64,000 bases of DNA, taken from an uncultured Candidatus Saccharibacteria bacterium (GTDB lineage: Bacteria > Patescibacteriota > Doudnabacteria > UBA920). Numbering within the stretch: the stretch's first letter is position 1; every line of letters starts with the position of its first letter. A model generated the notes under the pieces. It saw only the letters and a program-made list of their open reading frames with translations. It made no database searches and was not told where the DNA came from. The DNA is taken from positions 3,957-67,956 of the forward strand of contig CAYVNU010000003.1 in NCBI GenBank assembly GCA_964453265.1. The letters are read 5' to 3'. This document shows, piece after piece, positions 1,052 to 22,719 of this stretch. A program made the position numbers and the translations under genes.

Positions 1052-4000
1052 TTATTCTGCTAACTCAATACCATCTGAAAGTGCCGCTGATTCTTGCGCT
1101 TGTAAATTGCTTCTGGCAATATCCTCAGAAAAACCAGTACCAGCAGGAATCAACTTGCCAATAATAACATTTTCTTTTAAGCCTCTTAAATAATCAGTCT
1201 TTCCAGTAACAGCAGCTTCTATTAACACCCTGGTAGTTTCTTGAAAACTTGCGGCAGCTAAGAAGCTTTCTGTATTCAACGAGACTTTAGTAATACCCAT
1301 TAATAGCTGGTCAGCCTGAGCTTTTTTCTGGCCATTTTTATCCAACTGTTCGTTAATAAAATTCAGCTTTGATTTATCAACTATTTCTCCAGTGACGAAC
1401 TGGCTATCGCCAGATTCGGTTATGCGCATTTTTGAAAACATTTGACGCACAATAACTTCAATATGTTTGTCATGAATATTCTGACCTTGAGAAACATAAA
1501 TATCTTGGACTTCTTTAACAATATACTTTTGTGCTTCTTGAGTACCTCGTAATTCCATAATTTGACCTGGGTTTAAATTACCTTCAGTCAACTGTTGACC
1601 CTTTACAACCAAGTCGCCATCTTTAACAGTTAAAGAAAAAGATGTTGGAATTACATATTCTTTTACGGCATCACTTTCATGCACAACAATAATCTTGTTT
1701 TTTTCTACTCGAACAATACCACCCTCTTTGGCTTTTATAGCCTTACCCACTTCATCTATATAAAGAGTTTCGCCTGTTGAAACTTTACTACCATCTTTTA
1801 TAGCGCTTTGAGTATTGCCCAAATCATAACTGTCTTTTTGTACATCCGCGCCTTGAATACTAATTAAATATTCTTTATTATTTGGTTTTGCAATATATAC
1901 TTGTCCATCAATTTCACTAACTGTCGCCTGACCCTTAGGTTCCCTAGCCTCAAACAACTCCTCTACGCGAGGCAAGCCTTGGGTAATATCTTTAACCGAT
2001 GCACTACCTCCGGTATGGAAAGTACGCATTGTCAATTGAGTACCAGGCTCACCAATTGCCTGAGCCGCAACAATACCGACCGCTGCCCCGAGCTTAACCA
2101 TGTCATTAAAACCTAAATCATAGCCGTAACAAAGTCTACAAATACCCCGAGTAAGCTTACACTTTAAAACGCTACGACATTTCACTTCTGTAATCCCAGC
2201 TTCAACAATAGCTTTTGCCATAAAATCATCCATCCCCTGATTTTTCTCAACAATAACTTTTCCGTCTTTGTCTTTTACTATCTCAGCGGACACGCGTCCG
2301 AACAACCTTCTATCAAAAGCCTTATTCATCCTCTCACTGTCAGCTAAATTGATAAAATCAAAATCTTCAGTGCCACAATCTTCAGCGTTTACAACAATAT
2401 CTTGCGCAACGTCAACCAAACGCCTAGTTAAGTAACCGGCATCAGCGGTTCTAAGCGCAGTATCAGACATACCTTTACGGCTACCGTGAGTGGAAATAAA
2501 ATATTCCAAAACCTGCAAACCTTCCTTAAAAGAACCTTTAACCGGAAGTTCAATAACATCACCAGCCGGGTTTACAACCAAACCTTTCATACCGGACATC
2601 TGAGTAATTTGTGAAAAAGAACCTCTGGCACCGCTCGACACGAAATAATTAACACTGCCATGCTCAGTTACCGTATGCGTAACGCTTTTGGCAATTTTTT
2701 CGGAAACATCCGCCCAAATTTCCACAACTCTGTTTTTTCTTTCTTCTTCAGTCAAAAGACCTTCTTGAAATTGCTGGTAAGTAGATTCAACTTCTGTATC
2801 AGCCAATTTAAGCATGTCATATTTAGTGCCCGGCACTAACAAGTCATCCATACCCCATGACAACCCTGACTTTTTCATGTAGTAAAAACCTGTGCGCTTT
2901 ATTTCATCAATTAATTCTGCGGTCTTATCATTACCCAAAGTACGATGAGCTTCTCTAACTAAAGCCTGTAATTTCTTTTTATCAAAATTTTCATTTCTAA
3001 AACCAAGTGAAGGCGGCACGACTTTGTTAAAAATCAAACGACCGACGCTGGTTTCAATCATCTGTTCTTCTCCGCCAGAGTCAGATCCGGCTGATTGATG
3101 AAAGCTTTCGGCGGACATTCTCACCTTTACCTTAGCTTGAATATGAACAAAACCACTATGATAAGCCAAAACCGCTTCTTGGGCAGAAGAAAAAACTTTA
3201 CCTTCACCCAAAGCACCATCTCTAATTTTTGTAATATAGTAACAACCTACAACCACATCCTTGTCCGGAGTCATAACCGGATCACCGGAAGCAGGCTTAA
3301 GCAAGTTATGAGCGGAAACCATAATTTCTCTGGCTTCTTTTTGAGCCGCTTCTGTCAACGGTACATGAACAGCCATTTGGTCACCATCAAAGTCAGCATT
3401 AAAAGCCGCACACACCATCGGGTGAAGTTGAATAGCCTTGCCTTCTATTAATACTGGCTGGAAAGCTTGGAAACCCAAACGGTGCAAGGTCGGAGCACGA
3501 TTAAGCAAAACATAATGATCTTTAGTAACTTCTTCTAAAATATCCCAGACTTCATTTCTTGCCTGCTCAATTAACCTATTTGCGCTGCGAACATTATGCG
3601 CATATTCACGAGCAATTAATTTAGAAATAACAAAAGGCTTAAACAATTCAAGAGCCATAATTTTAGGCAACCCGCATTGATGAAGTCTCAAATGAGGACC
3701 TACAACAATAACGCTGCGCCCGGAATAGTCAACGCGCTTACCCAAAAGGTTTTGCCTAAAACGCCCTTGCTTACCCTTAAGCATGTCAGCCAAGCTTCTA
3801 AGTTTTCTTTTTTGTCCGGTACTGGCCGTTACTTCTTTCCCATGTCTAATACTGTTATCAATTAAAGCATCTACAGCTTCCTGTAACATGCGTTTTTCAT
3901 TTCTCGTAATAACTTCCGGCGCCTTAATTTCTAAAAGTTTCTTTAAACGATTGTTGCGGTTAATAACCCTGCGATATAAATCATTCAAATCAGAAGCCGC

Positions 4001-8962: not shown

Positions 8963-9050
8963 AAGGTCTTTTCCCAATTTTGGCTTATTTGTAAGGATTT
9001 TAAATATTTGGTCATTTTAATAGCTTATTTACTGTGGTATAATTATTTAA

Positions 9051-10001
9051 ATGGAAAATGTCATTAACATCAAAAGTCTTAGCAAATCATACCCTTTTCC
9101 CAAGTCCAAAGGCTTATTTCAAGTTGTAAACAACATAAGTTTCTCTGTACAAAAGGGCGAAATTTTTGGCATTTTAGGGCCAAATGGTGCCGGCAAAACC
9201 ACAACTTTGGAAATAATTGAGTGTTTAAAGCCGCAAACTTCGGGTATTGTTGAAGTTTTAGGCTTTAATAATTTAAAAAACCCAGAAGAAATAAAAAAAA
9301 GAATTGGTATTCAGCTACAATCGAGCCAATATTTACACCATTTGTCATTAAATGAGCTTTTAAAGCTTTTTCAATCTTTATATTCTTCCCCTAACTCAGA
9401 CACCAAAAAAACCCCAAGCCATTTATTAAAATTGGTAAATTTAGAAGACAAGGCTAATGCGGAATTTAAAGACCTCTCCGGCGGACAAAAACAGCGTTTT
9501 ACTATTGCCACTTCTTTAGTCAATGACCCTGAAATCTTATTTTTGGACGAACCCACTACCGGCCTTGACCCAAAGGCGAGAAGAAACTTATGGGAACTTA
9601 TAAAAAAAATAAACTTAAGCGGCATTACCATAGTTCTTACCACTCACTATATGGAAGAGGCTGAATATTTGTGCAACCGCGTAGCTATAATGGACGAGGG
9701 CAAGATTTTAGAAACAGACGAGCCTAAAAAATTAATAGATAGGATTTCTACGACTACTCAAATTTCTTTTTTATCTACAAACCAAATAAACGAAAATATT
9801 TTTAAAGCCCTGCCCGAAGTTACAAAAGTTTTAAACAAATTTCCCAAAACTATTGTGGAAATATCTTCCCTAGACCATATTAACAAGGTGGTAGATATTT
9901 TAAAAACCAATCAAATAAATTTTTCCGGCTTCACAGTAAAAACTGCCAGCTTAGAAGATGTATATTTGGATTTAACGGGAAAGGAGTATGAAAATGAATA
10001 G
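9051..10001 (+). CDS. ABC transporter ATP-binding protein
   Basis: Walker A GPNGAGKTTT, ABC signature LSGGQKQR, Walker B ILFLDEPTTGLD; overlaps downstream permease start. Confidence 0.9.
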   Translation: MENVINIKSLSKSYPFPKSKGLFQVVNNISFSVQKGEIFGILGPNGAGKTTTLEIIECLKPQTSGIVEVLGFNNLKNPEEIKKRIGIQLQSSQYLHHLSLNELLKLFQSLYSSPNSDTKKTPSHLLKLVNLEDKANAEFKDLSGGQKQRFTIATSLVNDPEILFLDEPTTGLDPKARRNLWELIKKINLSGITIVLTTHYMEEAEYLCNRVAIMDEGKILETDEPKKLIDRISTTTQISFLSTNQINENIFKALPEVTKVLNKFPKTIVEISSLDHINKVVDILKTNQINFSGFTVKTASLEDVYLDLTGKEYENE

Positions 10002-10731
10002 TTTTAAAGAACTTTTCCTGGCCAACCTAAAAATTATTTTTAGAAATCATTCAGGACTTTTTTGGAGTCTAGCAGTTCCTTTGGGTCTATATATTGCCTT
10101 AGCGGTTTTACCTATTCCTAATTTGGGTTTTATAAGTTACAAAAATTTTGCCTTACCGGGAATAATAACCTACGTAATTATGCAAGGCGGTATTTATACT
10201 CTAGCCTACTGGCTAATTGACCTAAAAAGCCGTGGGGTAATAAAAAGGTTTTTGGCAACGCCAATTAAAAATAGCGAGTTAATATTAAGTGTTATTGCCG
10301 CGCGCCTTTGCGTAACACTTCTCCAGTCCGTTCTCATAACTTTGGTAGGCATAGTATTTTTTGGCGCTCAGTTCGCGGGAAACCTTATTTCGTGCCTGGT
10401 ACTTATTTTGCTTGGTAGCGGAATATTTTTATGTATTGGGCTTTTAGTTTCAAATTACGCCGGAAGTTACGAGGCCGCAGCGCCAATTACTTCAAGCATA
10501 GGCATGCCATTTGCCTTTTTAGGTAATTTATTTTTACCGGTTGTATTTTTGCCAAATATTTTACAAACAGTTTCTAAATTTTTACCAGTTACCTACCTAT
10601 CAGACGGCCTTCGGCAAGCCTATTTATATGCTTTTGATTTTGAAAAAATTGGTAAAGACATTTTAATTTTAAGCCTCTGGTTACTTGGTATTTTGCTAAT
10701 AACCCTTAAAGTTTTTAAATTAAAAGAATAG
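9988..10731 (+). CDS. ABC-2 family transporter permease
   Basis: 247 aa, six hydrophobic segments, translationally coupled to the ATPase (overlapping start). Confidence 0.75.
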   Translation: MKMNSFKELFLANLKIIFRNHSGLFWSLAVPLGLYIALAVLPIPNLGFISYKNFALPGIITYVIMQGGIYTLAYWLIDLKSRGVIKRFLATPIKNSELILSVIAARLCVTLLQSVLITLVGIVFFGAQFAGNLISCLVLILLGSGIFLCIGLLVSNYAGSYEAAAPITSSIGMPFAFLGNLFLPVVFLPNILQTVSKFLPVTYLSDGLRQAYLYAFDFEKIGKDILILSLWLLGILLITLKVFKLKE

Positions 10732-13696: not shown

Positions 13697-14251
13697 TTAC
13701 TTTCCAAGTAATTTTAACGCCTGCTTTATTTGCTCGCCCGTAGTTGCCACTGCATCTAACTTGTTAATTATGCTTCTCACTTCATTTTGCTTATACCCTA
13801 AAGCAATAAGTGCATCAAACACCTCACTGCTTCCACCTGTCACCCGTAACCCGTCACCCGTCACTTTTCCTTTTAGCTCCACTATTATTTTCTCCGCTGT
13901 CTTAGTCCCCACTCCCGAAATACGTGTAAAAATTCCGGCATCTTGGTTTGCAATCGCAGATTTTACCGCATCTACCCTTGCTGACGATAGTATAGCTAAA
14001 GCGACTTTCGGACCTACCCCCGAAACAGTAATAAGCATTTCAAAAAACTGCAAAGTGTTAAAGTCAGACAAACCAAAAAGACTCTGTCCGTCCTCGGAAA
14101 CTTTGTGATATATATAGAGCGAAAGACTATGGCCAATTCTGCTTTCTAAAACTTCCGGCGTTACAAAAACCTTATAACCTACGCCTTGATTTTCAAGGAT
14201 TATAAAGTTAGTAGCCTTCTCTAATATTTTTCCTTGCAAAAAAGCAATCAT
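13697..14251 (-). CDS. ruvA: Holliday junction branch migration protein RuvA
   Basis: 184 aa, MIAFLQGKI start, helix-hairpin-helix GVGPKVALAIL motifs; contains in-frame GDGLRVT repeat insert. Confidence 0.9.
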   Translation of the reverse strand: MIAFLQGKILEKATNFIILENQGVGYKVFVTPEVLESRIGHSLSLYIYHKVSEDGQSLFGLSDFNTLQFFEMLITVSGVGPKVALAILSSARVDAVKSAIANQDAGIFTRISGVGTKTAEKIIVELKGKVTGDGLRVTGGSSEVFDALIALGYKQNEVRSIINKLDAVATTGEQIKQALKLLGK

Positions 14252-14376
14252 AAGCTATGAAATTTTAATTAATACAAATCTATAAATGACTACAAAATAA
14301 TCCATTACAAATTCGTAGTTATTTGTAGCGCCCCCATTTAGTAGATTCGTAGTTATTCTACCACCTCCCAAAGCCG

Positions 14377-14405
14377 TTGACAAAAGGCTTAAATTAGCGT
14401 ATACT
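14377..14405 (+). promoter_or_regulatory. consensus sigma-70 promoter TTGACA-N17-TATACT driving the structured RNA locus
   Basis: ttgaca 14377-14382, exact 17-nt spacer, tatact 14400-14405; predicted TSS near 14413. Confidence 0.65.
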
Positions 14406-14413
14406 TTTGCCAA

Positions 14414-14931
14414 CCTGAGTTGGGGGGATTAGCACTGGTGGTCAGCCATGATCATCAGCTTACCCCTCAAGCTCAAGCCAGCTGGCCTTTAGAAGCAGGG
14501 TCAGTTGGCAACGGCAGTCCTACGAGCAATAAGCCTCAGACGTAGGACTGCCGGTAAAAGTTTTAAAAGCCGCAAGCACTGGCTTGCGGCAGGGCACGAC
14601 TAGAACGCAAAGTTCTAGCATCTGAATCGAATATTCAGAGATGAACACACCAAACCCACCATCGGGATTCCCGTCCCAAGTGTGTTCATCCGCCCTTTGA
14701 GGATTCGGCGCGCCTGACAGATCAGGAGCAGGTGTGCCGAGCTGCGGCCAGGTTCCCATTAATTTGGGGAGTTAAAACTCGAGCTCAGAGCTCACCAGCC
14801 GCAGCAAAAAATTAAGGAGGAAAAAATTTTTTGGCCCCTAAAAAGGGCCGATCGGGGGATGAGCATGCAATGGTGCATGCGCTTGCCCTGGGGGCAAGAG
14901 AAAGCGGGTTCAAATCCCCTATCCCCTACCA
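14414..14931 (+). ncRNA. GC-rich highly structured non-coding RNA of uncertain class (candidate tmRNA/ssrA; alternatively unknown sRNA co-transcribed with a tRNA-like gene)
   Basis: About 55-60% GC in a 35-40% GC genome; many perfect local hairpins (13-bp cggcagtcctacg/cgtaggactgccg, 11-bp gatgaacacac/gtgtgttcatc, 9-bp gccgcaagc/gcttgcggc); starts GGGGGAT right after the promoter and ends with T-arm GGTTCAAATCC, acceptor strand ATCCCCT, A73 and CCA; followed by intrinsic terminator; no conserved RNase P or SRP motifs seen. Confidence 0.45.
14854..14931 (+). tRNA. tRNA-like module (cloverleaf with UGG Pro-like anticodon but C at position 33 and one T-stem mismatch; encoded CCA)
   Basis: 7-bp acceptor stem gggggat/atcccct (G1-U72), D-stem gcat/atgc with GG in loop, anticodon stem cttgc/gcaag, loop cctgggg, canonical T-loop gTTCAAATc, discriminator A, CCA 14929-14931; non-canonical C33 keeps confidence low; may instead be the tRNA-like domain of a tmRNA. 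Confidence 0.4.
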
Positions 14932-14993
14932 GTTTTAGGAGTTCGCCTGAGCATTTTTTGCTCGCACTCCAAAAAATTTATCCTCCTCCTTGA

Positions 14994-15028
14994 GGGCGGC
15001 CAGCAACCAGCTGGTCGCCCTTTTTTTT
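14994..15028 (+). terminator. rho-independent terminator after the RNA locus
   Basis: gggcggccagc-aacc-agctggtcgccc stem followed by TTTTTTTT. Confidence 0.75.
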
Positions 15029-15100
15029 ATTCTCACCACTTTATGTGGCTTTTTTTAATTGTAGAAAAATGTTAAAATGAAAATTGGTCATTAATTAACC

Positions 15101-15250
15101 TATTTGTCGTATTAGTCTTATACGTCCTATAGGTCTTATGTGTCCCATAAGACCTATCCGTCCAATTTGTCCTATAAGTCTTAATAAGTCCTATTTGCCT
15201 TATAAGACTTATCAAGCTGTCCGTCCTATCAAGTCCCGTCCTATACAATT
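15101..15250. repeat. array of palindromic GTCCTAT(A/T)AG(A/G)TCTTAT-type repeats upstream of uvrB (candidate operator array)
   Basis: at least six gtcctat copies, embedded palindromes cctatagg, cttataag and aggtcttatg-N4-cataagacct; a related copy at 45345-45382. Confidence 0.6.
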
Positions 15251-15373
15251 TAAGCTTACTTCAAAATTCCAATCCTCCTTCGCCAAGGCTTCCAACTTCG
15301 CCAAGGCTACGTCGGACGAGTCGGCGGACCTATCGTAATAAATTACATCCGATAATAATCGGAGTTTAGTTTT

Positions 15374-17437
15374 ATGAATAAATTTGTACTAAAATCTAAA
15401 TTTAAGCCCGCCGGAGATCAGCCACGCGCGATTGAGGGTCTTTTAAAGTCGCTTAAAGCAAAAAACCGTTTTCAAACTCTACTTGGCGTTACAGGTAGCG
15501 GCAAGACTTTTACTATGGCCAACATAGTAGAAAAAATTCAAAAACCCACACTAATTATTTCCCACAACAAAACCTTAGCCGCGCAACTTGCCGCGGAATT
15601 TCAAGAATTTTTCCCAGACAACGCGGTTCACTATTTTGTCTCGTATTACGATTATTATCAGCCAGAAGCCTACATCCCCCGTTCAGATACCTACATAGAA
15701 AAAGATACCCAAATAAATGAAGAGATCGATCGTTTGAGAAACGCTGCCACCCAAAGTCTTTTGTCTAGAAAAGATGTTTTAATAGTAGCATCTGTTTCCT
15801 GCATTTACGGTCTTGGCGACCCGGCTAACTATTTAGATTTGGCAATGAGTTTTAAAGAAGGAAAGGATTATAAACGAGACAAGTTACTTAGAAGACTAAC
15901 AGATTTACAGTACCACCGTAACGACACAGAACTAGTGCGCGGCACTTACCGCGTGCAAGGTGATGTAGTAGAAATTATCCTTTCGAGCGAAGACACCATT
16001 ATTCTAATGGATTTTTTTGGCGACACGCTAGAAAAAATAGAAAGATTGGATGCCGTAAGTGGACACAAAATAGAAACCTTAGAAGAATTTACCATTTTTC
16101 CCGCTAAGCACTTTGTCACGCCCGAAGAAAAACTAAAAGCTGCTACAGAAAATATTCGTGCAGAAATGTTAGACCGAGTAAAATATTTTAAGTCCCAAAA
16201 CAAACTTATAGAGGCTCAAAGAATAGAACAACGTACAAACTTTGACTTAGAAATGTTAAGTAATACAGGCTTTGTTTCCGGTATAGAAAACTACTCTAGG
16301 CAAATAGAAGGGCGTGAAGCGGGCTCTGCTCCGTCTACTTTAATTGACTACTTTCCCGACGACTTTTTACTTTTTGTAGACGAGTCACATCAAACTATTC
16401 CGCAAATTGGCGCTATGTACGAGGGCGACAAGTCGCGCAAAACCAACTTGGTTGACTACGGTTTCAGACTCCCCTCTGCGCTCGACAACCGTCCGCTTAA
16501 GTTTGATGAATTTGAAAAGAAAATTAATCAAGTCGTTTTTGTTTCAGCAACGCCGGCGCCTTTTGAAATTTTAGCCTCTGTAAACCAAAAAATTCCTAAA
16601 AAGGTTGAGGGTGAAAAATTAATGGTTACCGATGTTAAGCAGACAGACACTATAGTCGAGCAGTTAATAAGACCGACCGGCCTACTCGACCCCACCATAG
16701 AAATAAAGCCCATAAAAAACCAGGTTGATGATTTAATAGAACGCATACATGAACGTATAAAAAAACATCAACGCGTGTTGGTTGCCACACTAACTAAACG
16801 CATGGCCGAGGAACTAACCGAGTACTTAAAAGAAGACGGAGTAAAAGTGCAGTACCTGCACAGCGATGTAGATACTTTTGAACGTTTAGAGATTTTGCGC
16901 GATTTAAGACTTGGCGTTTTCGATGTTTTAGTCGGCATTAACTTACTCAGAGAAGGTTTAGATTTACCCGAAGTTTCTTTAGTTGCAATTCTAGATGCGG
17001 ACAAAGAAGGATTCCTTCGCTCTGAAACTTTCTTTATGCAAATGATGGGCAGAGCAGCGCGTCACCTTGAAGGTCATGTTGTAATGTACGCAGATAGAAT
17101 TACAGGAAGTATGCAAAGAGGGATTGATGAAACCACCCGCAGAAGAAAAATCCAAGAAGCCTACAATAAAAAACACGGTATAACCCCCAAAGGCATACAA
17201 AAAGCTATTGCCGATTCGCGCATGGCAGGCCAAAGGTCCCCCGAAGCTTTAGCGGAGGGGGAAAGCAAACTATATCGTGACCCAAGCCGTATGGACAAAG
17301 AAGAACTAAAATTCTACCTCCACGAACTAGAAGAACAGATGGATTTAGCAGCAAAAAATTTGGAGTTTGAGACAGCCGCAAAGATTCGCGATAGAATTGA
17401 AGAAATAAAAACCTTAAAACGTTTGAGTAAAAAATAA
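15374..17437 (+). CDS. uvrB: excinuclease ABC subunit B
   Basis: 687 aa, GVTGSGKTFTMANI Walker A, UvrB helicase motifs and C-terminal UVR domain (EFETAAKIRDRIEEIK). Confidence 0.97.
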   Translation: MNKFVLKSKFKPAGDQPRAIEGLLKSLKAKNRFQTLLGVTGSGKTFTMANIVEKIQKPTLIISHNKTLAAQLAAEFQEFFPDNAVHYFVSYYDYYQPEAYIPRSDTYIEKDTQINEEIDRLRNAATQSLLSRKDVLIVASVSCIYGLGDPANYLDLAMSFKEGKDYKRDKLLRRLTDLQYHRNDTELVRGTYRVQGDVVEIILSSEDTIILMDFFGDTLEKIERLDAVSGHKIETLEEFTIFPAKHFVTPEEKLKAATENIRAEMLDRVKYFKSQNKLIEAQRIEQRTNFDLEMLSNTGFVSGIENYSRQIEGREAGSAPSTLIDYFPDDFLLFVDESHQTIPQIGAMYEGDKSRKTNLVDYGFRLPSALDNRPLKFDEFEKKINQVVFVSATPAPFEILASVNQKIPKKVEGEKLMVTDVKQTDTIVEQLIRPTGLLDPTIEIKPIKNQVDDLIERIHERIKKHQRVLVATLTKRMAEELTEYLKEDGVKVQYLHSDVDTFERLEILRDLRLGVFDVLVGINLLREGLDLPEVSLVAILDADKEGFLRSETFFMQMMGRAARHLEGHVVMYADRITGSMQRGIDETTRRRKIQEAYNKKHGITPKGIQKAIADSRMAGQRSPEALAEGESKLYRDPSRMDKEELKFYLHELEEQMDLAAKNLEFETAAKIRDRIEEIKTLKRLSKK

Positions 17438-17484
17438 AAAAACAAAGATGACCATTGCACTGTGCGATGGTCATCTTTGTTTTA
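17438..17484. terminator. bidirectional rho-independent terminator
   Basis: caaagatgaccat-loop-atggtcatctttg 13-bp stem with flanking A and T runs between convergent uvrB and TrmB-like gene. Confidence 0.75.
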
Positions 17485-17493
17485 AATGTAAAT

Positions 17494-18249
17494 CTACTTT
17501 CCTACTACCCTCTCATACTTCTCCGCGCTTTGCCAAGCCATTTCAAAAATGGTTTTAAGGGAAGTTACCACGCCTTTGCTGGTAATAACCACGACAAATA
17601 AGTAAGGCGAATAAGAAAAAAAGGCTACACTGTCTTTAAAAAAAACATTGTCGGTTAGAAATTGCATATTTTTTGGCACAAATCTGTTTTCATAAAATTC
17701 GTGCTGCGGCATTTTACGCGCGTGGATTAAGTCTTCCGCACTTTGCGTTAAGAGTTCCCGTACTTTTATTTTTTTTGCCAAAGCCATATTCTTTAATTCG
17801 CCCGGCATATATTCAAACGCACCCATTACGTCGGAAATATTACAAAAAAAATCTACCTCAGGGGAGGCAAAAACTTTTTTGTAAACTTCCAAAACACCCT
17901 CTTTGCCTTCAAACAACTGAATTTGCGGCTTTTCAACTTTTGCGTTATAAAGCGCCAGCATATTCGGCATAAACCTTTTTACCATTTCCTGCTTTTTGTG
18001 TAAGTCCCCTATTATTTTTTCCGGGCTCTCTGCGGTATAGAGAGCTTTTTTTGCGCGTGGCACCACGCTAACCAAACCTTTTTTTACCAACTGTTCCAAA
18101 ATTAAATAGGTAGTCGGCCGCTTTATTTCCGCTTTATTGGAAATGGGGTGCACCGTAGCAGTACCCAATTCCAAAAGCGCCAAATAAACTTGCGCTTCCT
18201 TTTCGTCTAAACCTACTTGTTTTAATACATTTACTATTTCCATGTGCAT
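17494..18249 (-). CDS. TrmB-family transcriptional regulator
   Basis: N-terminal winged-helix LGLDEKEAQVYLALLELGTATVHPISNKAEIKRPTTYLILEQLVKKGLV typical of TrmB sugar-responsive regulators. Confidence 0.7.
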   Translation of the reverse strand: MHMEIVNVLKQVGLDEKEAQVYLALLELGTATVHPISNKAEIKRPTTYLILEQLVKKGLVSVVPRAKKALYTAESPEKIIGDLHKKQEMVKRFMPNMLALYNAKVEKPQIQLFEGKEGVLEVYKKVFASPEVDFFCNISDVMGAFEYMPGELKNMALAKKIKVRELLTQSAEDLIHARKMPQHEFYENRFVPKNMQFLTDNVFFKDSVAFFSYSPYLFVVVITSKGVVTSLKTIFEMAWQSAEKYERVVGK

Positions 18250-18254
18250 TTATT

Positions 18255-18375
18255 CCTTCTCCTTTTAAGGAGAGGGTTAGGGAGAGGTTGAATTCTATAG
18301 ATAGCAACAATACTACATGTCATCCCGGCCTGCGACATTATCCTCCGTAGCTTTAGCGAAGGATGGAGCCGGGAT
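18255..18375. repeat. composite intergenic repeat: palindromic element (family A) plus CCGTAGCWTTAGCGAAGGA element (family B) flanked by atcccggc/gccgggat inverted repeat
   Basis: ccttctccttttaaggagagggttagggagagg at 18255-18287 resembles in-gene copies at 12386-12424 and 62899-62934; ccgtagctttagcgaagga at 18345-18363 matches 24072-24090. Confidence 0.6.
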
Positions 18376-18503
18376 CCAGTTTAATTAGCTATTTCCATTA
18401 TATTCCCCTTTCTCATTTTTGTCAACTTTTCTGACAAATAAATAATACTTAATGAATATACCTATAAACAAAGCTATTTAGTATATTTAATTAGTCATAC
18501 TTA

Positions 18504-18532
18504 TTGACTATATGCTAAATTTATGACATAAT
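18504..18532 (+). promoter_or_regulatory. sigma-70-like promoter TTGACT-N17-CATAAT upstream of GC-rich gene
   Basis: ttgact 18504-18509, 17-nt spacer, cataat 18527-18532. Confidence 0.45.
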
Positions 18533-18644
18533 TGCAAGTTATAAAAAATAACAGTCCAGGGAGCCTGCGGGACTAAAAACTTGGGGTGATACTCTGGCGA
18601 GAGTTTCTAAATACGCGTGACAATCCTGAAGGAGGATTTAAAAA

Positions 18645-19358
18645 ATGCCTGCATATACGATCGCTGACTTCGCCCGGAAACACAAAGGCCTGCGTGTGAT
18701 CGCCCGCCGCCATGCGGTGTACAACAAACCCGTGCTTGGACTGGACGCCCTTACAATGGCTGCGCTCATCTACTCGCGCACCATTGACCCGCAACTTCTT
18801 GGCCTAAGTGCCGAGGGCATGGAACAGATGTACAACCAGGGCGAGCTGCTTGCGGAAATGGGACTTGTTCCTGACCGCATAGTCACAGGCATTGACCTGC
18901 GCAACTGGGAAGGCGGGATGCAAACCGTCGCTGCCATCAAGGCCAAAACCGGCAATGTAGTTCCCTGCCACCGCAGCCCGGCCGTAACCTATCCGTACTA
19001 CGATGCCATGAAGACCGTAGAGGTGTATGAAAAGTACGGTGACCAGGCCGTACACGCTTACCTGTCCGAACAGCCCGGAACGGAAGGACTGTGGACTGAG
19101 TCGGCCGCGGACTTTATGAACCGGATCGAAATGTCAGTTGCGTCAGTAGCGTGGCCGGGAATCACGCTATTTGATCTCAACTTCGAGCAAATGACATTCC
19201 TGCATTTCCACCTTGTCGAGCACCTGCGGCAAGTTGAGATTCCATTTGGCCCCGACGCCTGGTGTCCTAAAAACGGCGGAGGGATCGTCATCGCCAACGA
19301 CGACGCTGTGGGCGAGTTCCACCCGGATCTCACCATGGTTATCAAGATCGTAAGCTAG
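18645..19358 (+). CDS. hypothetical protein encoded on a GC-rich (about 58%) island; likely horizontally acquired
   Basis: 237 aa ORF with strong SD ggagga 8 nt upstream; codon usage/GC sharply different from flanks; many spurious overlapping ORFs in other frames typical of GC-rich DNA; followed by 9-bp-stem hairpin gggagagac/gtctctccc. Confidence 0.6.
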   Translation: MPAYTIADFARKHKGLRVIARRHAVYNKPVLGLDALTMAALIYSRTIDPQLLGLSAEGMEQMYNQGELLAEMGLVPDRIVTGIDLRNWEGGMQTVAAIKAKTGNVVPCHRSPAVTYPYYDAMKTVEVYEKYGDQAVHAYLSEQPGTEGLWTESAADFMNRIEMSVASVAWPGITLFDLNFEQMTFLHFHLVEHLRQVEIPFGPDAWCPKNGGGIVIANDDAVGEFHPDLTMVIKIVS

Positions 19359-19462
19359 CTGGCATCCGACGGCTACAAGGGAGAGACAAACCACGCACAG
19401 TGGCGTCCGTCTCTCCCTACCCTTTATTAGTCCTTAATAAATTAAGCATTAATAATAGGTAT

Positions 19463-19786
19463 ATGAAATTATTACTCAAAGGCTTAGGCGCAAGCCAAGG
19501 CACAGTAGAGGGTGAAGCTAAAATCTTTTTACCCGGGGAAGCTAATAAAGACTTTCCGGAAGGCGCGATTTTAGTTACCACCTTAACCGACCCGACCATG
19601 GTTCAGGCCATGGTTAAAGCCGTAGGTATTGTTACAGATATTGGCGGCATCACTTCTCACCCAGCAATTTTAAGTCGGGAAATGGGTATTCCTTGCGTAG
19701 TTAGCACTAAACAAGGTACTCAAATAATTAAAGACGGGATGAAAATTTTTATTGACGGTACAAAAGGAGAAGTTTATGCCGTATAA
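19463..19786 (+). CDS. stand-alone PEP-utilizing enzyme mobile (phosphohistidine swivel) domain protein
   Basis: GIVTDIGGITSHPAILSREMGIPCVVS matches GGxTSHAAIxARExGIPxVVG motif of PEP synthase/PPDK central domain; start set at MKLLLKG. Confidence 0.75.
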   Translation: MKLLLKGLGASQGTVEGEAKIFLPGEANKDFPEGAILVTTLTDPTMVQAMVKAVGIVTDIGGITSHPAILSREMGIPCVVSTKQGTQIIKDGMKIFIDGTKGEVYAV

Positions 19787-19829
19787 AGTCTTCTAAAAAA
19801 TTATTTATAAACATTAACCTGATTTAAAT

Positions 19830-20954
19830 ATGATTCAATCTGCCAATTCAAAAGAAATTCCAGAGAATAAAAACTGGATTAGAGATTTTGCCCAAGCGTC
19901 TTTTAAACTATATTCGGGTAATACTATAGATGCATTCCAGCCTCTAGACTTTTTTCATTTTTACCCGCTCTGGTACGATTTATGGGTAAACAGATTTATG
20001 TCTGTAATGGATGTTTTACAATGCGATTATAAAAGCTATCAAGAATTAAAACACTTATTACCCGTACCTTCCAGTATGAGAGCAATTTTACAAAAGCTCA
20101 TCCCAACTTTTGCAGGCGTAGACCCCATGCATGCAAAAAACTTTGGTAGGATGGCAAATTTTTTCACGCGCATGCTTAAAGAAAGCTGTGCGGAAGACCC
20201 TTTTGGTTTTAGCCACAACCCTCTTCATACCAGAAATGAACTAAACGAAATAATTCAAAACACCCCCTGGCAACCAGCAACTCCCGAAATTGCCAAACAA
20301 CTAGGACAACTAATTACCGCAGCCGGCTCCTTAGTGCACGGCTTATATAATGACGTAGTTACAGATTTCGGTTGGGATGCCTATGGACCTTACAACATAG
20401 TTTTGCCTGAAAAAAAATATCAAATAATTATTCGTCACTTTCCAGATCTTGCGCCAAAAGAAATATGGGAAAGTAAATTTTTAACACCGGTTCAAGATAT
20501 AAAAATCTATCAATTTTACGAAAACGTAGAATGGGAATTAGCTTTTTTAGGCTGCCATACAGTGCTTAAATCGGGTAGCCCAGTACTTGGATTAAAATAC
20601 TTTGCCATATCTATAAACGAAAAATTTATTACCCCAAATATTATACAGCCCATAATACAAGAATTTAGCGAAAAAGCTGTTAGCATATATAAAGAAATTA
20701 GAAAAAAAGATTTTGAAGAATTAAAACAATTGGTAATGATTCAAGAATGCTACCAACTACACAAAATATTTTCTGCCGCCTACATGAACTGGCAGCCTAC
20801 GGAAGAAATGTTGGAAAAAATAAAAAACCAACCTCTTACTTCTAACTTATTACCTTTTGGCAGATTAATGACCAGCCTTGATGAATACAAAGAACTTTTT
20901 CATATAAATAAATTCGAAAAAGAAGTTTTAGACTTTCCCACTGTTAAGGCATAA
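19830..20954 (+). CDS. hypothetical protein (374 aa), possibly partner of the mobile-domain protein
   Basis: long ORF with lineage-typical codon usage, no recognisable motif. Confidence 0.5.
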   Translation: MIQSANSKEIPENKNWIRDFAQASFKLYSGNTIDAFQPLDFFHFYPLWYDLWVNRFMSVMDVLQCDYKSYQELKHLLPVPSSMRAILQKLIPTFAGVDPMHAKNFGRMANFFTRMLKESCAEDPFGFSHNPLHTRNELNEIIQNTPWQPATPEIAKQLGQLITAAGSLVHGLYNDVVTDFGWDAYGPYNIVLPEKKYQIIIRHFPDLAPKEIWESKFLTPVQDIKIYQFYENVEWELAFLGCHTVLKSGSPVLGLKYFAISINEKFITPNIIQPIIQEFSEKAVSIYKEIRKKDFEELKQLVMIQECYQLHKIFSAAYMNWQPTEEMLEKIKNQPLTSNLLPFGRLMTSLDEYKELFHINKFEKEVLDFPTVKA

Positions 20955-20965
20955 AGCCTTAATCC

Positions 20966-21017
20966 CGTATGTCACCCGCACAAGGATTCCCCTTGTTGTT
21001 TACAAGGGGAATCCTTG
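20966..21017 (+). terminator. terminator-like perfect 17-bp hairpin
   Basis: cacaaggattccccttg-ttgttta-caaggggaatccttgtg followed by ttta; second 7-bp hairpin tgtcaag/cttgaca just downstream. Confidence 0.55.
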
Positions 21018-21184
21018 TGTTTACCTCATGTCAAGACATAGAGCCTTGACAGAAAGGGTAAAAAATAATAAAATATTTTGAAAATCCCGGGCTTTTTTCT
21101 GGGATTTTTAATTTTAAAAATAGCAGGGGGACTGTATTCATGTCTGCTAAATAGCTAAAAATAGCTTTTGGTTATTTTGCGGAC

Positions 21185-21865
21185 ATGAAAAATCATATTA
21201 TTCTTTTGGCCACGCTATGCGTGGCCACCCTGTGTCCAAGGGGGGCGCTTGGACAATGGGAGGCCGAGGCGCGGCTGGCGCCTCACACTCCCAAAGAATT
21301 TTCGGAAGGACATGGCGAGTCCTTCCGGAACGTGGGGGAGGCATGGTTCCGTCTCCCCTCCCTGCGGGGTTTCCGCGGGGAAACAGGAGCCTTCCGGACC
21401 GGCGACTCGTTTGTCGCCGTGTTCGGAGTTGAAAAGGAGTTGGCACACGACCAACTCCTGCCAGGCATTTTTGCCTGGGTTGATTCCGGCGGCATCCGGC
21501 CTGCCGCTGGGATCTCGTGGGCTCGGCATAGCCGAGTAGCTTTAGAGGGGCACGCCATTATGGCGTCCCCGAAAAAACTGCTCGGCCGCAGTGACGCAAG
21601 CCTAAGCCTCACAAGAGGCTTTGCGCTTGGTGTTACTGCCGAGCTAGACCCTGCCCCACACGGCAGGGCGTGGGGTTTGGGGCCTCACGTTAAAAAACAA
21701 ATCAAAGGAGCCGAGCTGGTGCTCGGCCACCTTTGGAAAATTGAAGGGGAAGGAGCCGAACGCCACGGCGAACCTTCCACTCACCCCATGAACCGCGAAT
21801 GGTTCGTGGGTATTAAATTCGCTCTCGGCCACCCCAAGGCCGAGGGCAAAAAATCTCACCACTAG
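21185..21865 (+). CDS. secreted hypothetical protein on second GC-rich (about 62%) island; possible outer-membrane beta-barrel/lipid A deacylase-like
   Basis: N-terminal signal peptide MKNHIILLATLCVATLCPRGALGQ, glycine/aromatic-rich, C-terminal EWFVGIKFALGHP; all six frames open across 21198-21862 as expected for GC-rich coding DNA. Confidence 0.5.
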   Translation: MKNHIILLATLCVATLCPRGALGQWEAEARLAPHTPKEFSEGHGESFRNVGEAWFRLPSLRGFRGETGAFRTGDSFVAVFGVEKELAHDQLLPGIFAWVDSGGIRPAAGISWARHSRVALEGHAIMASPKKLLGRSDASLSLTRGFALGVTAELDPAPHGRAWGLGPHVKKQIKGAELVLGHLWKIEGEGAERHGEPSTHPMNREWFVGIKFALGHPKAEGKKSHH

Positions 21866-21876
21866 CTGATGAGTAG

Positions 21877-21912
21877 GGGCCAGGACATAGCGTTCCTGTC
21901 CCCTTGTTTTTT
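21877..21912 (+). terminator. rho-independent terminator
   Basis: cagga-catagcg-ttcctg hairpin then ccccttgTTTTTTTTc. Confidence 0.6.
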
Positions 21913-22028
21913 TTCTGCAATTTTGGTAAAATACGAAAAGTCTGAGTAATTAAATTTTTCATCCGTGTCGGATAAATTTTATTATCAGATAAGCATAATA
22001 CATTATTCTTAATACATAATACTTTTCT

Positions 22029-22298
22029 ATGCCAAATACTAAATCCGCAATGAAAGCCATGCGCCAGTCTATTACCAGACGCGCACGAAACATTGCCCAA
22101 AAAGATACTTTTAAAACCGCAGTTAAAGAAGTAAAAAAACTTATTACTGCCGGCAAAAAATCTGAAGCCATGGAAGCCATGAAAAAGGCTATGTCCACTT
22201 TAGACAAAGCCGTTAAAAAAGGAGTAATTAAGAAAAATACTTCTTCTCGAAAAAAATCCAGAATGGCAAAAGCTATAGCAAAATTAAAAACCGCTTAA
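22029..22298 (+). CDS. rpsT: 30S ribosomal protein S20
   Basis: MPNTKSAMKAMRQSITRRARN N-terminus and lysine/alanine-rich 89 aa typical of bS20; terminator hairpin aaaaccgc-ttaa-ggcggttttt overlaps stop. Confidence 0.9.
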   Translation: MPNTKSAMKAMRQSITRRARNIAQKDTFKTAVKEVKKLITAGKKSEAMEAMKKAMSTLDKAVKKGVIKKNTSSRKKSRMAKAIAKLKTA

Positions 22299-22306
22299 GG
22301 CGGTTT

Positions 22307-22719
22307 TTAATTTGTATAAAGTATTATGTATTGGGTATTGGGTATAAGGCTTCTACAGCTCTTAATTAAACCATGTATTAACTTATCGCACTTTAATGAT
22401 TGGTTTTCGATCTCCCTATACTTTTCTTCTTCTAAATAACCAATTCCTTTACTTAAATCTGCCTGGCTCCTAACTTCTGTTAGAGAGCCCAAAGCTGTAT
22501 AATAAAATTGAATCTTTTCCTTAAATGAATTTCTGCTAAAGCCTTCGCAATATTTGAAGCAATGGAAATTACAGCCCGTCTTATTTGCGATGTAATGCCA
22601 AACAATTCTTCTTTTGGAAAATTTTTAGTAATCTTATAGACTAAAATAGCTAGATTATAAGCTTCCTGCCAAGCGTATAAATCACGAAATGATTGTATTT
22701 TGTTTTGCGCCTTATACAT
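22307..22719 (-). pseudogene. four-helix-bundle protein gene (23S rRNA intervening-sequence protein family) disrupted by a -1 frameshift
   Basis: N-terminal part QSFRDLYAWQEAYNLAILVYKITKNFPKEELFGITSQIRRAVISIASNIA then frame change; +2 frame continues EGFSRNSFKEKIQFYYTALGSLTEVRSQADLSKGIGYLEEEKY, i.e. the family consensus NIAEGFxRxSxKEFxxFLxIAxGSLxE; a single missing G at about 22541-22547 restores the frame. Confidence 0.7.

Follow-up and report, generated by a model that had tools for sequence, protein, structure and literature searches.

A GC-rich gene for a predicted phosphoglycerate-mutase-like protein in a Patescibacterial gene cassette with a stand-alone phosphohistidine swivel: probable vertical inheritance and a candidate phosphoryl relay

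The window analysed here is a 64,000-nucleotide stretch of DNA from an uncultured member of the CPR (Patescibacteria). On its plus strand, at positions 18645–19358, lies an intact open reading frame, here called X, which encodes a protein of 237 amino acid residues. Transcribed divergently from X, on the minus strand at 17494–18249, is the gene for a transcription regulator of the TrmB family, which is of the sugar-sensing type (PF01978, E 5e-17; matches to the NCBIfam TrmBL1 and TrmB models are weak). As an earlier note on this DNA had described, X is followed by a gene for a stand-alone phosphohistidine swivel protein and this in turn by one for a protein of 374 residues, here called Y, which is without a family match.

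The swivel protein (19463–19786, plus strand; 107 residues) matches PF00391 over 72 of the 72 model positions (E 2e-25) and carries the motif GGITSHPAIL, with the TSH catalytic histidine. In NCBIfam it matches best the central domain of PEP synthase and the C-terminal domains of rifamycin phosphotransferase and PigC; compared with the matching segments of PEP-utilizing enzymes it gave E values of 1e-31 to 1e-20. Y (19830–20954, plus strand), characterised from its homologues and an AF2 model, is the constant partner of the swivel. It has at least 145 homologues, all from the CPR or of unassigned source, in which no Pfam domain was found except in the fusion protein P0133, and it contains invariant His, Cys and Asp residues. 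The AF2 model of Y is confident (pLDDT 91.8) and has no match among PDB folds (best E 0.24), nor does Y have one among PDB sequences. Neither an ATP-grasp domain (PF01326) nor a PEP/pyruvate TIM barrel (PF02896) was found in X or Y by searches of Pfam and NCBIfam and, for Y, of PDB folds and sequences.

X is conspicuous for its base composition. The region 18555–19415 has a GC content of 55.7%, compared with about 38% for the window, 36–39% for the flanks and 22–33% for the adjacent intergenic DNA; the anomaly was recognised in the earlier note, where it was put at about 58%, a figure slightly too high. Among all 861-bp segments of the 64 kb the region has a z-score of 4.6, a value reached by 0.02% of segments. 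The open reading frame itself is 56.4% GC with a GC3 of 67%, while the 38 other genes of the window range from 0.25 to 0.44, and only two of the 40 open reading frames of at least 150 residues exceed 0.45, namely X and 21185–21865. Codons that are rare elsewhere in the genome are common in X (ATC, 71% vs 5%; CTG, 40% vs 6%) and, besides GC3, GC1 and GC2 are shifted, i.e. amino acid usage is affected. By both sliding-window GC and codon usage the composition of X is thus atypical, as had been supposed. A chimeric assembly is excluded, as the GC-rich gene recurs, in the same position, in more than 12 independent assemblies (NCBI, JGI, ENA and Logan).

Upstream of X, a consensus scan and alignment identified a sigma-70-type promoter (18504–18532, plus strand; TTGACT, 17 nt, CATAAT with a TG extension). 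It has 10 of 12 consensus matches in addition to the TG, and the boxes are kept in an alignment of six orthologous upstream regions, which bears out the AT-rich promoter placed here by the earlier note; it is close to consensus. A perfect palindrome, TAGTCA-N7-TGACTA (18492–18510), overlaps the −35 box and is a putative TrmB operator on the basis of its sequence and position. It occurs once in the window against 0.07 occurrences expected by chance, and an identical or near-identical palindrome is present at the same place in the orthologous loci L001, L005 and L010 and in the deep relative L031. The archaeal TrmB and TrmBL1 proteins are sugar-responsive regulators with palindromic operators that overlap the promoter. 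The likeness here lies in the divergent PF01978 gene and the perfect palindrome over the −35 box; the archaeal TGM motif, however, differs from TAGTCA-N7-TGACTA, and the host is bacterial (CPR).

The 5′ leader (18540–18644, plus strand, start approximate), delimited by sequence and alignment, includes two small hairpins (18554–18573 and 18591–18604) and a strong Shine-Dalgarno sequence, GGAGGA, at 18631–18636, 8 nt 5′ of the ATG of X, in agreement with the earlier note. The leader is kept in the window, L001, L003 and L010; L005 and L012 either lack it or differ there. Its folding energy is no better than that of shuffled sequences (z = −0.35). The second leader hairpin shows one compensatory change (ACTCT/AGAGT to ACTCC/GGAGT), a pair that is the only positive sign for a structured RNA. 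Between X and the swivel gene lies a further hairpin (19379–19417, plus strand; −26.1 kcal/mol, z = −2.9), identified from folding energy and alignment and followed by a T-rich stretch. The earlier note had placed a 9-bp hairpin at 19385–19411, a span that proved too short; the structure consists of a 9-bp outer and a 4-bp inner stem. A G+C-rich hairpin of differing sequence occupies the same place in eight of eight aligned loci and also in L018 and L031. A strict terminator scan of the plus strand did not call the 19379–19417 hairpin; its sequence and position suggest a terminator or attenuator that splits X from swivel-Y. Promoter and palindrome are shared by most loci, the post-stop hairpin by every locus checked.

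That X encodes a real protein is indicated by 31 homologues, down to E 1e-14, and 30 invariant alignment columns. The family forms 39 clusters among 1.8 billion representative sequences, all of them small unnamed proteins; where a source is named, in a few clusters, it is Patescibacteria. X misses every curated family threshold of Pfam and NCBIfam: none of 30 family members matches PF00300, even at E ≤ 10, and PRK14120 scores 15.9 bits on X against a cut-off of 366. Weaker signals were obtained from a colinear NCBIfam phosphoglyceromutase match to X (E 0.006) and from sub-threshold PF00300 matches to its deep relatives (E 0.0018; 18.4 bits against a cut-off of 21.7). The AF2 model of X (pLDDT 94.7, pTM 0.91), which includes a PGM-like helical cap, matches 273 PDB chains at E ≤ 1e-3 in Foldseek, and the best 50 of these matches are all dPGM/BPGM (E about 1e-8, probability 1.0, TM 0.47–0.54). 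By this confident model X is a strongly diverged protein of predicted histidine phosphatase (cofactor-dependent phosphoglycerate-mutase-like) fold.

The active-site motif of this superfamily is retained in part. At least 90% of 30 aligned sequences of the X family carry R21, R22 and H23, and the residue after RH is A or F, not G. The X profile reaches RHG-bearing relatives; in hhalign (probability 100%, E 4e-40) H23 is aligned with the RHG/RHA histidine of 14 deep relatives. R86 is invariant and is placed by hhalign on the conserved second Arg of the deep relatives; weak alignments with E. coli GpmA (hhalign) and 4eo9 set it opposite R62 of GpmA, the hhalign comparison of X with GpmA being by itself not significant. 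The second catalytic histidine (H184 of GpmA) is replaced by the invariant Asn179 in the motif FDLNFEQ of the window's X subfamily; in the deep relatives this position reads [ST]H[FW]E. Opposite the dPGM general acid, Glu89, is Tyr116 of X, in an hhalign alignment of only 4.8% probability. X thus keeps the RH motif and R86 but not the second catalytic His; with Asn179 in its place, and Tyr116 at the Glu position, X could be a slow catalyst or a carrier only.

Compared with dPGM and BPGM (PF00300), X therefore shares the predicted α/β fold, the R22-H23 motif and a size of about 240 residues, and has an 'L-x-x-x-G...Q-G...L' helix and R86 at positions that match the dPGM motif. It differs in a TM score of only about 0.5, in having RRH-A/F for RHG, in the loss of the second His, for which the deep relatives have [ST]HFE, and in the apparent Tyr at the Glu position. 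Unlike dPGM, X also has a family-specific C-terminal W-x-P-K-x-GGG hairpin and is always linked to the swivel and Y. A PDB sequence match of X to gp135 of phage phi92 (E 0.002, shared FDL-FEQ) was taken as chance because gp135, an initiator of the phage tail tube, has the fold of a tube protein (PMC13450770).

The gene order TrmB, X, swivel, Y is common to the window and the loci L001, L003, L005/L013, L012/L016, L022, L010, L011, L014 and L029. Two deep relatives of about 25% identity, L018 and L031, also have this order, with swivel and Y joined in a single polypeptide. The TrmB gene directly adjoins X in divergent orientation in the window and in L001, L003, L005, L010, L012/L016, L018, L022 and L031. 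Extra genes lie between TrmB, X and swivel in L003 and L029. In L029 one gene separates TrmB from X, and an unrelated GC-rich gene adjoins X; in L003/L004 a histidine-phosphatase-like gene that is unrelated to X stands before the swivel gene, downstream of X. The swivel-Y pair is duplicated in L001 and L029, and in L017 it is without an adjoining X-like gene. In L015 this second histidine-phosphatase-like gene stands in place of X (hhalign of X against its 299-residue protein is by itself not significant), and the L015 cassette has a GC content of 44% in a host of about 58%, the opposite direction from the anomaly of X. A literature search for X/swivel/Y gene pairing in the CPR found nothing relevant.

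The earlier note explained the GC-rich block by probable recent horizontal acquisition, the promoter being the host's and the coding DNA behind it foreign; on this view the gene would not yet have ameliorated. X does share with horizontally acquired islands a sharp, gene-sized anomaly of GC content and codon usage, but the comparison across relatives contradicts this origin. At every orthologous locus X is 52–61% GC while the flanks are 34–51%, GC3 of the orthologues is 56–82% without decay, and X is equally GC-rich and in the same position in all relatives down to those of 25% identity; because such homologues are present in sister genomes, the reading of a recent transfer fails. Nor does a resident promoter with a foreign gene behind it fit, given that promoter and palindrome are conserved with X in most loci and the hairpin in all of those checked. 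Between pairs of loci, the identity of X correlates with that of TrmB, swivel and Y (r = 0.72–0.82). Unlike an acquired island, X is conserved in place and composition and diverges together with its neighbours. The identity orders of X and Y are imperfectly congruent, as seen when L003 is compared with L005. Signatures of mobility are likewise lacking: no tRNA was found in the window (ARAGORN), a search for flanking repeats as insertion scars across 18100–19900 gave only short, chance-level matches, and the genes bordering the X unit are those for TrmB and swivel, with no integrase or other mobility gene. The clusters of the family point to no source other than Patescibacteria among those that are named. 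A recent acquisition is consequently highly improbable.

Synonymous sites give the same picture. Between the window and L001, 39% of the four-fold sites of X are identical, where composition predicts 29%; the corresponding values are 44% and 28% for uvrB and 32% and 27% for Y. As X is no more conserved at these sites than the two controls, its synonymous sites have turned over and yet stayed G or C, and conservation at the nucleotide level, looked for in the same comparison, was not seen. Saturated four-fold sites together with a GC-rich X in all loci indicate that the composition is actively maintained. An alternative that dispenses with selection on the transcript is an ancient transfer of X from a higher-GC donor, followed either by recombination that replaced X again and again from a pool of higher-GC CPR, or by locus-specific GC-biased gene conversion (gBGC). 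The plasticity of the locus (extra genes in L003 and L029, duplicated swivel-Y in L001 and L029), the other GC-rich gene beside X in L029, the divergent composition of the L015 cassette and the incomplete congruence of L003 and L005 could all be accommodated in this way, and a shift of GC1 and GC2 is what a directional substitution bias predicts. Swivel and Y, 100 bp away, are however AT-rich in the same genomes, so that any conversion bias would need to end at the hairpin. Effects of gBGC reported in bacteria amount to a few GC3 points, not the 30–40 seen here, no higher-GC donor lineage was seen, and the GC content of X is flat (0.52–0.61) regardless of that of the host. We regard such a history as decidedly unlikely. 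A third possibility is that the block is primarily a structured non-coding or dual-function RNA to which the open reading frame is secondary. Structured RNAs are the classic GC-rich islands of AT-rich genomes, and the block matches the extent of the transcript between promoter and hairpin. Some orthologues of X fold better than their synonymous shuffles (z = −4.3 and −5.3) and the neighbouring GC-rich open reading frame Z is extremely hairpin-rich (z = −11.9). Against this stand the strong protein conservation, with its invariant residues and a confident model of a known enzyme fold, the unconserved synonymous sites, and the lack of an Rfam match (nothing at gathering threshold in the whole window and nothing relevant at E ≤ 10 in 14000–22500). 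Moreover, the z-score of the window's X is −0.26 and the mean of eight orthologues (about −2.5; range −0.3 to −5.3) equals that of control genes (−2.2 to −2.9). A primary RNA function is scarcely tenable.

X may instead have a gene-specific GC set-point of about 55–60% that would be older than its split from the RHG/THFE-bearing relatives. Selection acting on the stability or expression of the transcript, and not origin, may maintain the composition, a reading that draws on the composition together with the strong promoter and Shine-Dalgarno sequence and that is the weakest step of the account. Two causes of the GC-richness were rejected. Excess mRNA structure is absent from the window's X when compared with synonymous-codon shuffles, as given above, and the translational selection of the genome would not produce these codons: C-ending codons for Phe, Tyr, Ile and Asn make up 64–86% in X against 10–19% in the reference set of RNA polymerase subunits, trigger factor and S20.

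From gene order, motifs and structural models, the best reading of the function is a phosphohistidine relay, native to the host and under TrmB control, in which X would serve the swivel protein as acceptor or as partner enzyme. The proposed operon would run from the divergent TrmB gene through promoter and palindromic operator to X, the hairpin, swivel and Y. Y, with its invariant His/Cys/Asp cluster, would load a phosphoryl group onto the swivel histidine, which would hand it to His23 of X; X would then use it in mutase or phosphotransferase chemistry on a small phospho-metabolite, which would probably derive from a sugar. Through TrmB, sugar supply would turn the operon on or off, and the hairpin 3′ of X would permit an excess of X over swivel-Y. 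The earlier suggestion that X is the partner of the swivel in a split PEP-dependent phosphotransferase is upheld in outline, by the fold of X with its RH motif and by the deep linkage to swivel and Y, but not as to PEP, as the cassette has no PEP/pyruvate-binding or ATP-grasp domain. Like the swivelling phosphohistidine domain of PEP synthase, PPDK, PTS enzyme I, rifamycin phosphotransferase and PigC/RedH, the 107-residue swivel protein is a full mobile domain with the TSH catalytic histidine motif. Unlike in these enzymes, the swivel here is separate or fused only to Y, and its partners are Y and X in place of the ATP-grasp domain or TIM barrel. The partner reading is also favoured by the different histidine-phosphatase-like gene that takes the position of X in other CPR genomes.

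X could alternatively resemble SixA and act as a phosphohistidine phosphatase that removes the phosphoryl group from the swivel so as to reset or drain it; it would then regulate the relay or serve as its safety valve, and would be neither a productive acceptor nor a metabolic enzyme. SixA is a protein of about 160 residues that is not known to be encoded with its target. X shares with it the superfamily fold and the RH nucleophile motif and is tightly linked to the gene for a phosphohistidine carrier. SixA dephosphorylates the phosphohistidine of NPr in the PEP-driven relay PTS-Ntr (PMC7948535, PMC6282199), so that by analogy the X/swivel pair would couple a histidine-phosphatase fold to the phosphohistidine of a relay of the PEP-utilizer-driven type; SixA-NPr was the only documented precedent found for such a pairing. 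The target of SixA is HPr-like, whereas that proposed here is a swivel domain, and X, at 237 residues and with its PGM-like helical cap, is nearer to dPGM/BPGM in size and in its top fold matches. The loss of the second catalytic His (N179) argues against efficient hydrolysis, and a strong promoter and Shine-Dalgarno sequence of its own, with a hairpin before swivel-Y, fit an abundant enzyme better. We therefore consider a SixA-like role unlikely. For the whole explanation, in which X is native to an old operon of the CPR, has been inherited vertically, and has a GC set-point and a part in the phosphohistidine relay, we judge the evidence to be on balance favourable. It is conceivable, if doubtful, that the relay is an undescribed three-component system specific to the CPR, in which Y, an enzyme of novel fold, charges a free swivel that then primes or feeds X, and that X, Z and the extra gene of L029 belong to a class held at a fixed high GC content independent of the genome.

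X is a counter-example to the routine inference that a gene of atypical GC content has been acquired by recent horizontal transfer. It has kept a GC content of about 55–60%, and codons that the genome avoids, despite full synonymous turnover and in genomes of 34–51% GC; its composition is set by something other than ancestry. The candidate causes, which are mRNA stability, codon-dependent control and local conversion bias, would inform the evolution of base composition in reduced genomes. If the GC set-point class is real, it would imply composition-based control of expression, or mRNA protection, in minimal cells. The operon joins three proteins without annotated function, among them the widespread CPR protein Y, under a regulator of the sugar type. 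The central metabolism of the CPR is sparse and poorly understood, and a dedicated phosphoryl relay that supplies a mutase-like enzyme would, if the proposal is true, close part of this gap.

The block at 18555-19415, which an earlier note had described as a GC-rich island holding a single gene, was confirmed as such, with 55.7% GC compared to 36-39% in the flanking DNA and 22-33% in the adjacent intergenic stretches; it lies 4.6 standard deviations above the mean of all 861-bp windows of the 64 kb, which has 38.1% GC overall. The 237-aa ORF within it (X, 18645-19358, forward strand) has 56.4% GC and 67% GC at third codon positions (GC3). Among the 40 window ORFs of at least 150 aa, GC3 exceeds 0.45 only in X and in a second GC-rich ORF, Z (21185-21865). 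In X, ATC makes up 71% of Ile codons (5% in the rest of the window) and the shares of TTC and CTG are 62% and 40% (background 11% and 6%), while TTA and AGA are not used. The amino acid usage is shifted too (A, G, P, V, H and W up; K, N, I and S down) and therefore the pressure acts on composition as such.

The promoter and ribosome-binding site proposed for X were both found, the former at 18504-18532 (TTGACT-17-(TG)CATAAT) and the latter, GGAGGA, 8 nt ahead of the ATG. A strong hairpin does follow the stop codon, but it spans 19379-19417 and not 19385-19411; a G+C-rich hairpin of varying sequence occupies this place in all loci examined and probably acts in termination or attenuation, so that X can be expressed at a different level from the downstream genes. 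These genes are, as had been stated, a stand-alone mobile domain protein (PF00391; the swivel, 107 aa, 19463-19786) followed by a 374-aa protein with no assigned role (Y, 19830-20954). A perfect 18-bp inverted repeat just past the Y stop codon (CACAAGGATTCCCCTTGT / ACAAGGGGAATCCTTGTG, 20979-21019) is likely to terminate transcription of X, swivel and Y. The -35 box is overlapped by a perfect palindrome, TAGTCA-N7-TGACTA (18492-18510), which occurs once in the window (0.07 copies expected by chance) and is a candidate operator for the divergently transcribed TrmB-family regulator (PF01978; 17494-18249, reverse strand). Among related loci in other genomes and metagenomes (L numbers), the palindrome recurs in L001, L005 and L010 and, with little change, in L031, a deep relative, and the -35 and -10 boxes are conserved along with it. 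A leader of about 90 nt with two small hairpins is common to the window, L001, L003 and L010, and shows a single compensatory change among them; L005 and L012 lack it, and it folds no better than shuffled sequences. The regulatory architecture travels with the gene, and the suggestion that foreign coding DNA was inserted behind a host promoter did not hold, as promoter and palindrome are conserved with X in most of the related loci.

X is a real protein gene, neither an RNA nor an assembly artefact. The family comprises 31 homologues with 30 invariant columns, including RRH, DxRN, SPAVTYP, GD..H, LW.E, FDLNFEQ and W.P..GGG, and searches with Rfam and ARAGORN gave no RNA family or tRNA for the region. 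A chimeric join, raised as a possibility in the earlier note, is excluded because independent assemblies from four archives have the gene at this position. Homologues with a named source are from Doudnabacteria, Magasanikbacteria or the 'Patescibacteria group', and on this basis the window looks like a CPR/Patescibacteria genome.

The order TrmB (divergent), X, swivel, Y is kept in every related X locus, also where the outer flanks differ (ruvA-uvrB in the window, L001 and L003; yebC/ruvC and gyrA in L005 and L012). X has 56.1, 55.6 and 59.8% GC in L001, L003 and L005, respectively; across the genome-collection loci it has 55-61% (GC3 0.67-0.79) with flanks of 35-50%, and in nine metagenome loci 54.5-61% compared to 34-51%. 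The GC content of X does not track that of its host. In seven full cassettes the pairwise identities of X correlate with those of Y, the swivel and TrmB at r = 0.72-0.82, the same range as these three show among themselves. At four-fold sites of conserved residues, X of the window and of L001 (75% amino acid identity) are 39% identical against a composition-based expectation of 29%, comparable to uvrB (44/28%), Y (32/27%) and TrmB (47/26%); deeper comparisons are at chance. Substitution at the synonymous sites of X has therefore kept pace with that in its neighbours, and despite this turnover GC3 has not fallen to the genomic level of ~0.33 or begun to approach it. By standard amelioration reasoning, leftover foreign composition should largely have vanished at such divergence. 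A profile search with X against 1.8 billion representatives found only 39 clusters, the fringe members of which are ~25% identical to X (hhalign between the two groups, probability 100%, E = 4e-40). Two of these fringe relatives could be placed on contigs, L018 and L031, both with the order TrmB, X-like gene and a fused swivel-Y; the X-like genes have 56% GC (GC3 0.70) and 52% GC (GC3 0.56), respectively, and the adjoining genes 34-38% (GC3 0.24-0.34). This deep branch is decisive: homologues of similar GC in the same cassette down to ~25% identity refute, many times over and on the note's own terms, the recent horizontal acquisition that had been proposed.

The closest relative with accessible DNA sequence, L029 (X 82% identical), has an extra GC-rich gene directly upstream of X (2550-3266; 238 aa, 52.7% GC), which is unrelated to X and has no Pfam match, and a 321-aa gene between TrmB and this extra gene.

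What keeps X GC-rich must be sought elsewhere than in recent transfer, which is excluded by the conserved cassette and GC in relatives. Specific RNA structure was rejected, since z scores of X coding sequences against synonymous shuffles (-0.26, -0.8, -4.3, -1.3, -5.3, -4.0, -3.3 and -0.6) are on average at the level of control genes (-2.2 to -2.9). Conserved synonymous sites were rejected because four-fold sites are as variable as in the neighbours, and the genome's own codon preference because C-ending codons for F, Y, I and N make up 10-19% in RNA polymerase subunits, trigger factor and S20, compared to 64-86% in X. The GC-rich block coincides with the extent of the transcript, from promoter to hairpin; X and Z both lie behind near-consensus promoter matches, and a third GC-rich block (14.4-15.0 kb) lies behind a conserved TTGACAAAA box. 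We tentatively suggest that selection favours a GC-rich transcript of greater stability and high expression, a reading that falls somewhat short of even odds; the rival explanation is that the composition is set by GC-biased conversion specific to this locus, or by recombination within a gene pool of higher GC.

The third block (14355-15040, 51.5% GC) lies between ruvA and uvrB and contains no convincing ORF or Rfam family. At its end is a tRNA-like element (~14855-14930) that carries a GGTTCAAATCC T-loop and terminates in CCA; it scores 22.7 bits with the Rfam tRNA model (gathering score 29) and is not called by ARAGORN. Both L001 and L003 conserve the upstream box, ATTCTACCA..CCC..TTGACAAAA, and the block is probably an unannotated structured RNA. 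L018 has a 1.6-kb stretch (~9000-10600) of 50-56% GC in a 35% GC genome, with no called gene, which may be another structured RNA or a GC-rich gene. Upstream of uvrB, the window has a degenerate tandem array of about 10 copies of the 9-bp unit GTCCTATAA (15106-15206), which L001 and L003 lack at the equivalent position. At 22307-22719 (reverse strand), a 23S-rRNA-intervening-sequence/bAvd-like four-helix-bundle gene is divided between two adjacent ORFs covering PF05635 positions 1-61 and 67-105; the L001 orthologue is a single 129-aa gene, and the split is a frameshift, pseudogene or sequencing error.

The AF2 model of X, built with the family alignment as input (pLDDT 94.7, pTM 0.91), gave 273 Foldseek matches in the PDB at E ≤ 1e-3, of which the 50 best are without exception cofactor-dependent phosphoglycerate mutases (dPGM) or bisphosphoglycerate mutases (E ~1e-8, probability 1.0, TM ~0.5). 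The sequence is weakly consistent with this: an NCBIfam phosphoglyceromutase match is colinear (E = 0.006), the dPGM 4eo9 aligns over the L..G...QG..L...R segment, and deep relatives match PF00300 below threshold. X shares size, cap and fold with dPGM. In profile-profile alignments His23 corresponds to the RHG histidine and Arg86 to the second arginine; unlike in dPGM, the second catalytic histidine is replaced by Asn179 (FDLNFEQ; [ST]HFE in deep relatives). X thus keeps the phosphohistidine-forming half of the active site, with the other half changed. As it fails all curated Pfam and NCBIfam thresholds, it was assigned to a new and divergent family within this fold and not called a phosphoglycerate mutase.

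The swivel covers the whole mobile domain, including the TSH histidine. Y is widespread and highly conserved in CPR, with 145 or more homologues at 45-75% identity, and apart from occasional fusion to the swivel no Pfam domain was found in any of them; its invariant residues include H43, H170, D175, D179, C242, H243 and E306. Its model (pLDDT 91.8) matches no PDB fold (best E = 0.24), nor does its sequence match the PDB, and Y, with its invariant His/Cys/Asp cluster, may represent a novel fold. The swivel and Y form the core of the cassette, with varying genes at the X position: in L015 this is a 299-aa protein that carries a VRHAQK motif and matches PF00300 weakly, and in L017 an unrelated 134-aa protein, and L003 and L004 have a protein like the 299-aa one besides X. 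Recruitment of two unrelated histidine-phosphatase-like families beside swivel-Y argues for a functional link of the fold with the phosphohistidine carrier. In L015 (3755-6077; CP064975, Moraniibacteria-like, ~58% GC) the contrast is reversed, the cassette (the 299-aa protein, swivel and Y) having 44-45% GC and the region around it 55-61%; swivel and Y, too, seem to have a composition of their own whatever the host. The window has a single swivel-Y pair; the second pairs directly downstream of the first in L001 (8217-9598) and L029 (5582-6957) are tandem duplications.

The proposal that X is a partner of a split PEP-dependent phosphotransferase is supported in outline by fold, motif, linkage and fusion, though not in its chemistry; 'PEP-dependent' is not established, because the cassette contains no ATP-grasp or PEP-barrel domain. 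In the relay that we infer, Y would charge the swivel histidine from a phosphoryl donor, the swivel would hand the phosphoryl group to His23 of X, and X would act on a small phospho-metabolite, which the control by TrmB suggests to be derived from a sugar. In the main rival reading, X would hydrolyse the phosphorylated swivel, as SixA hydrolyses NPr~P (PMC7948535). We favour an acceptor or enzyme role because X resembles dPGM in size and cap, lacks the second catalytic histidine and has strong expression signals of its own.

X is a newly recognised and highly diverged version of a known enzyme fold, with an unusual and conserved compositional anomaly, and the TrmB/X/swivel/Y operon is undescribed and deeply conserved in CPR.
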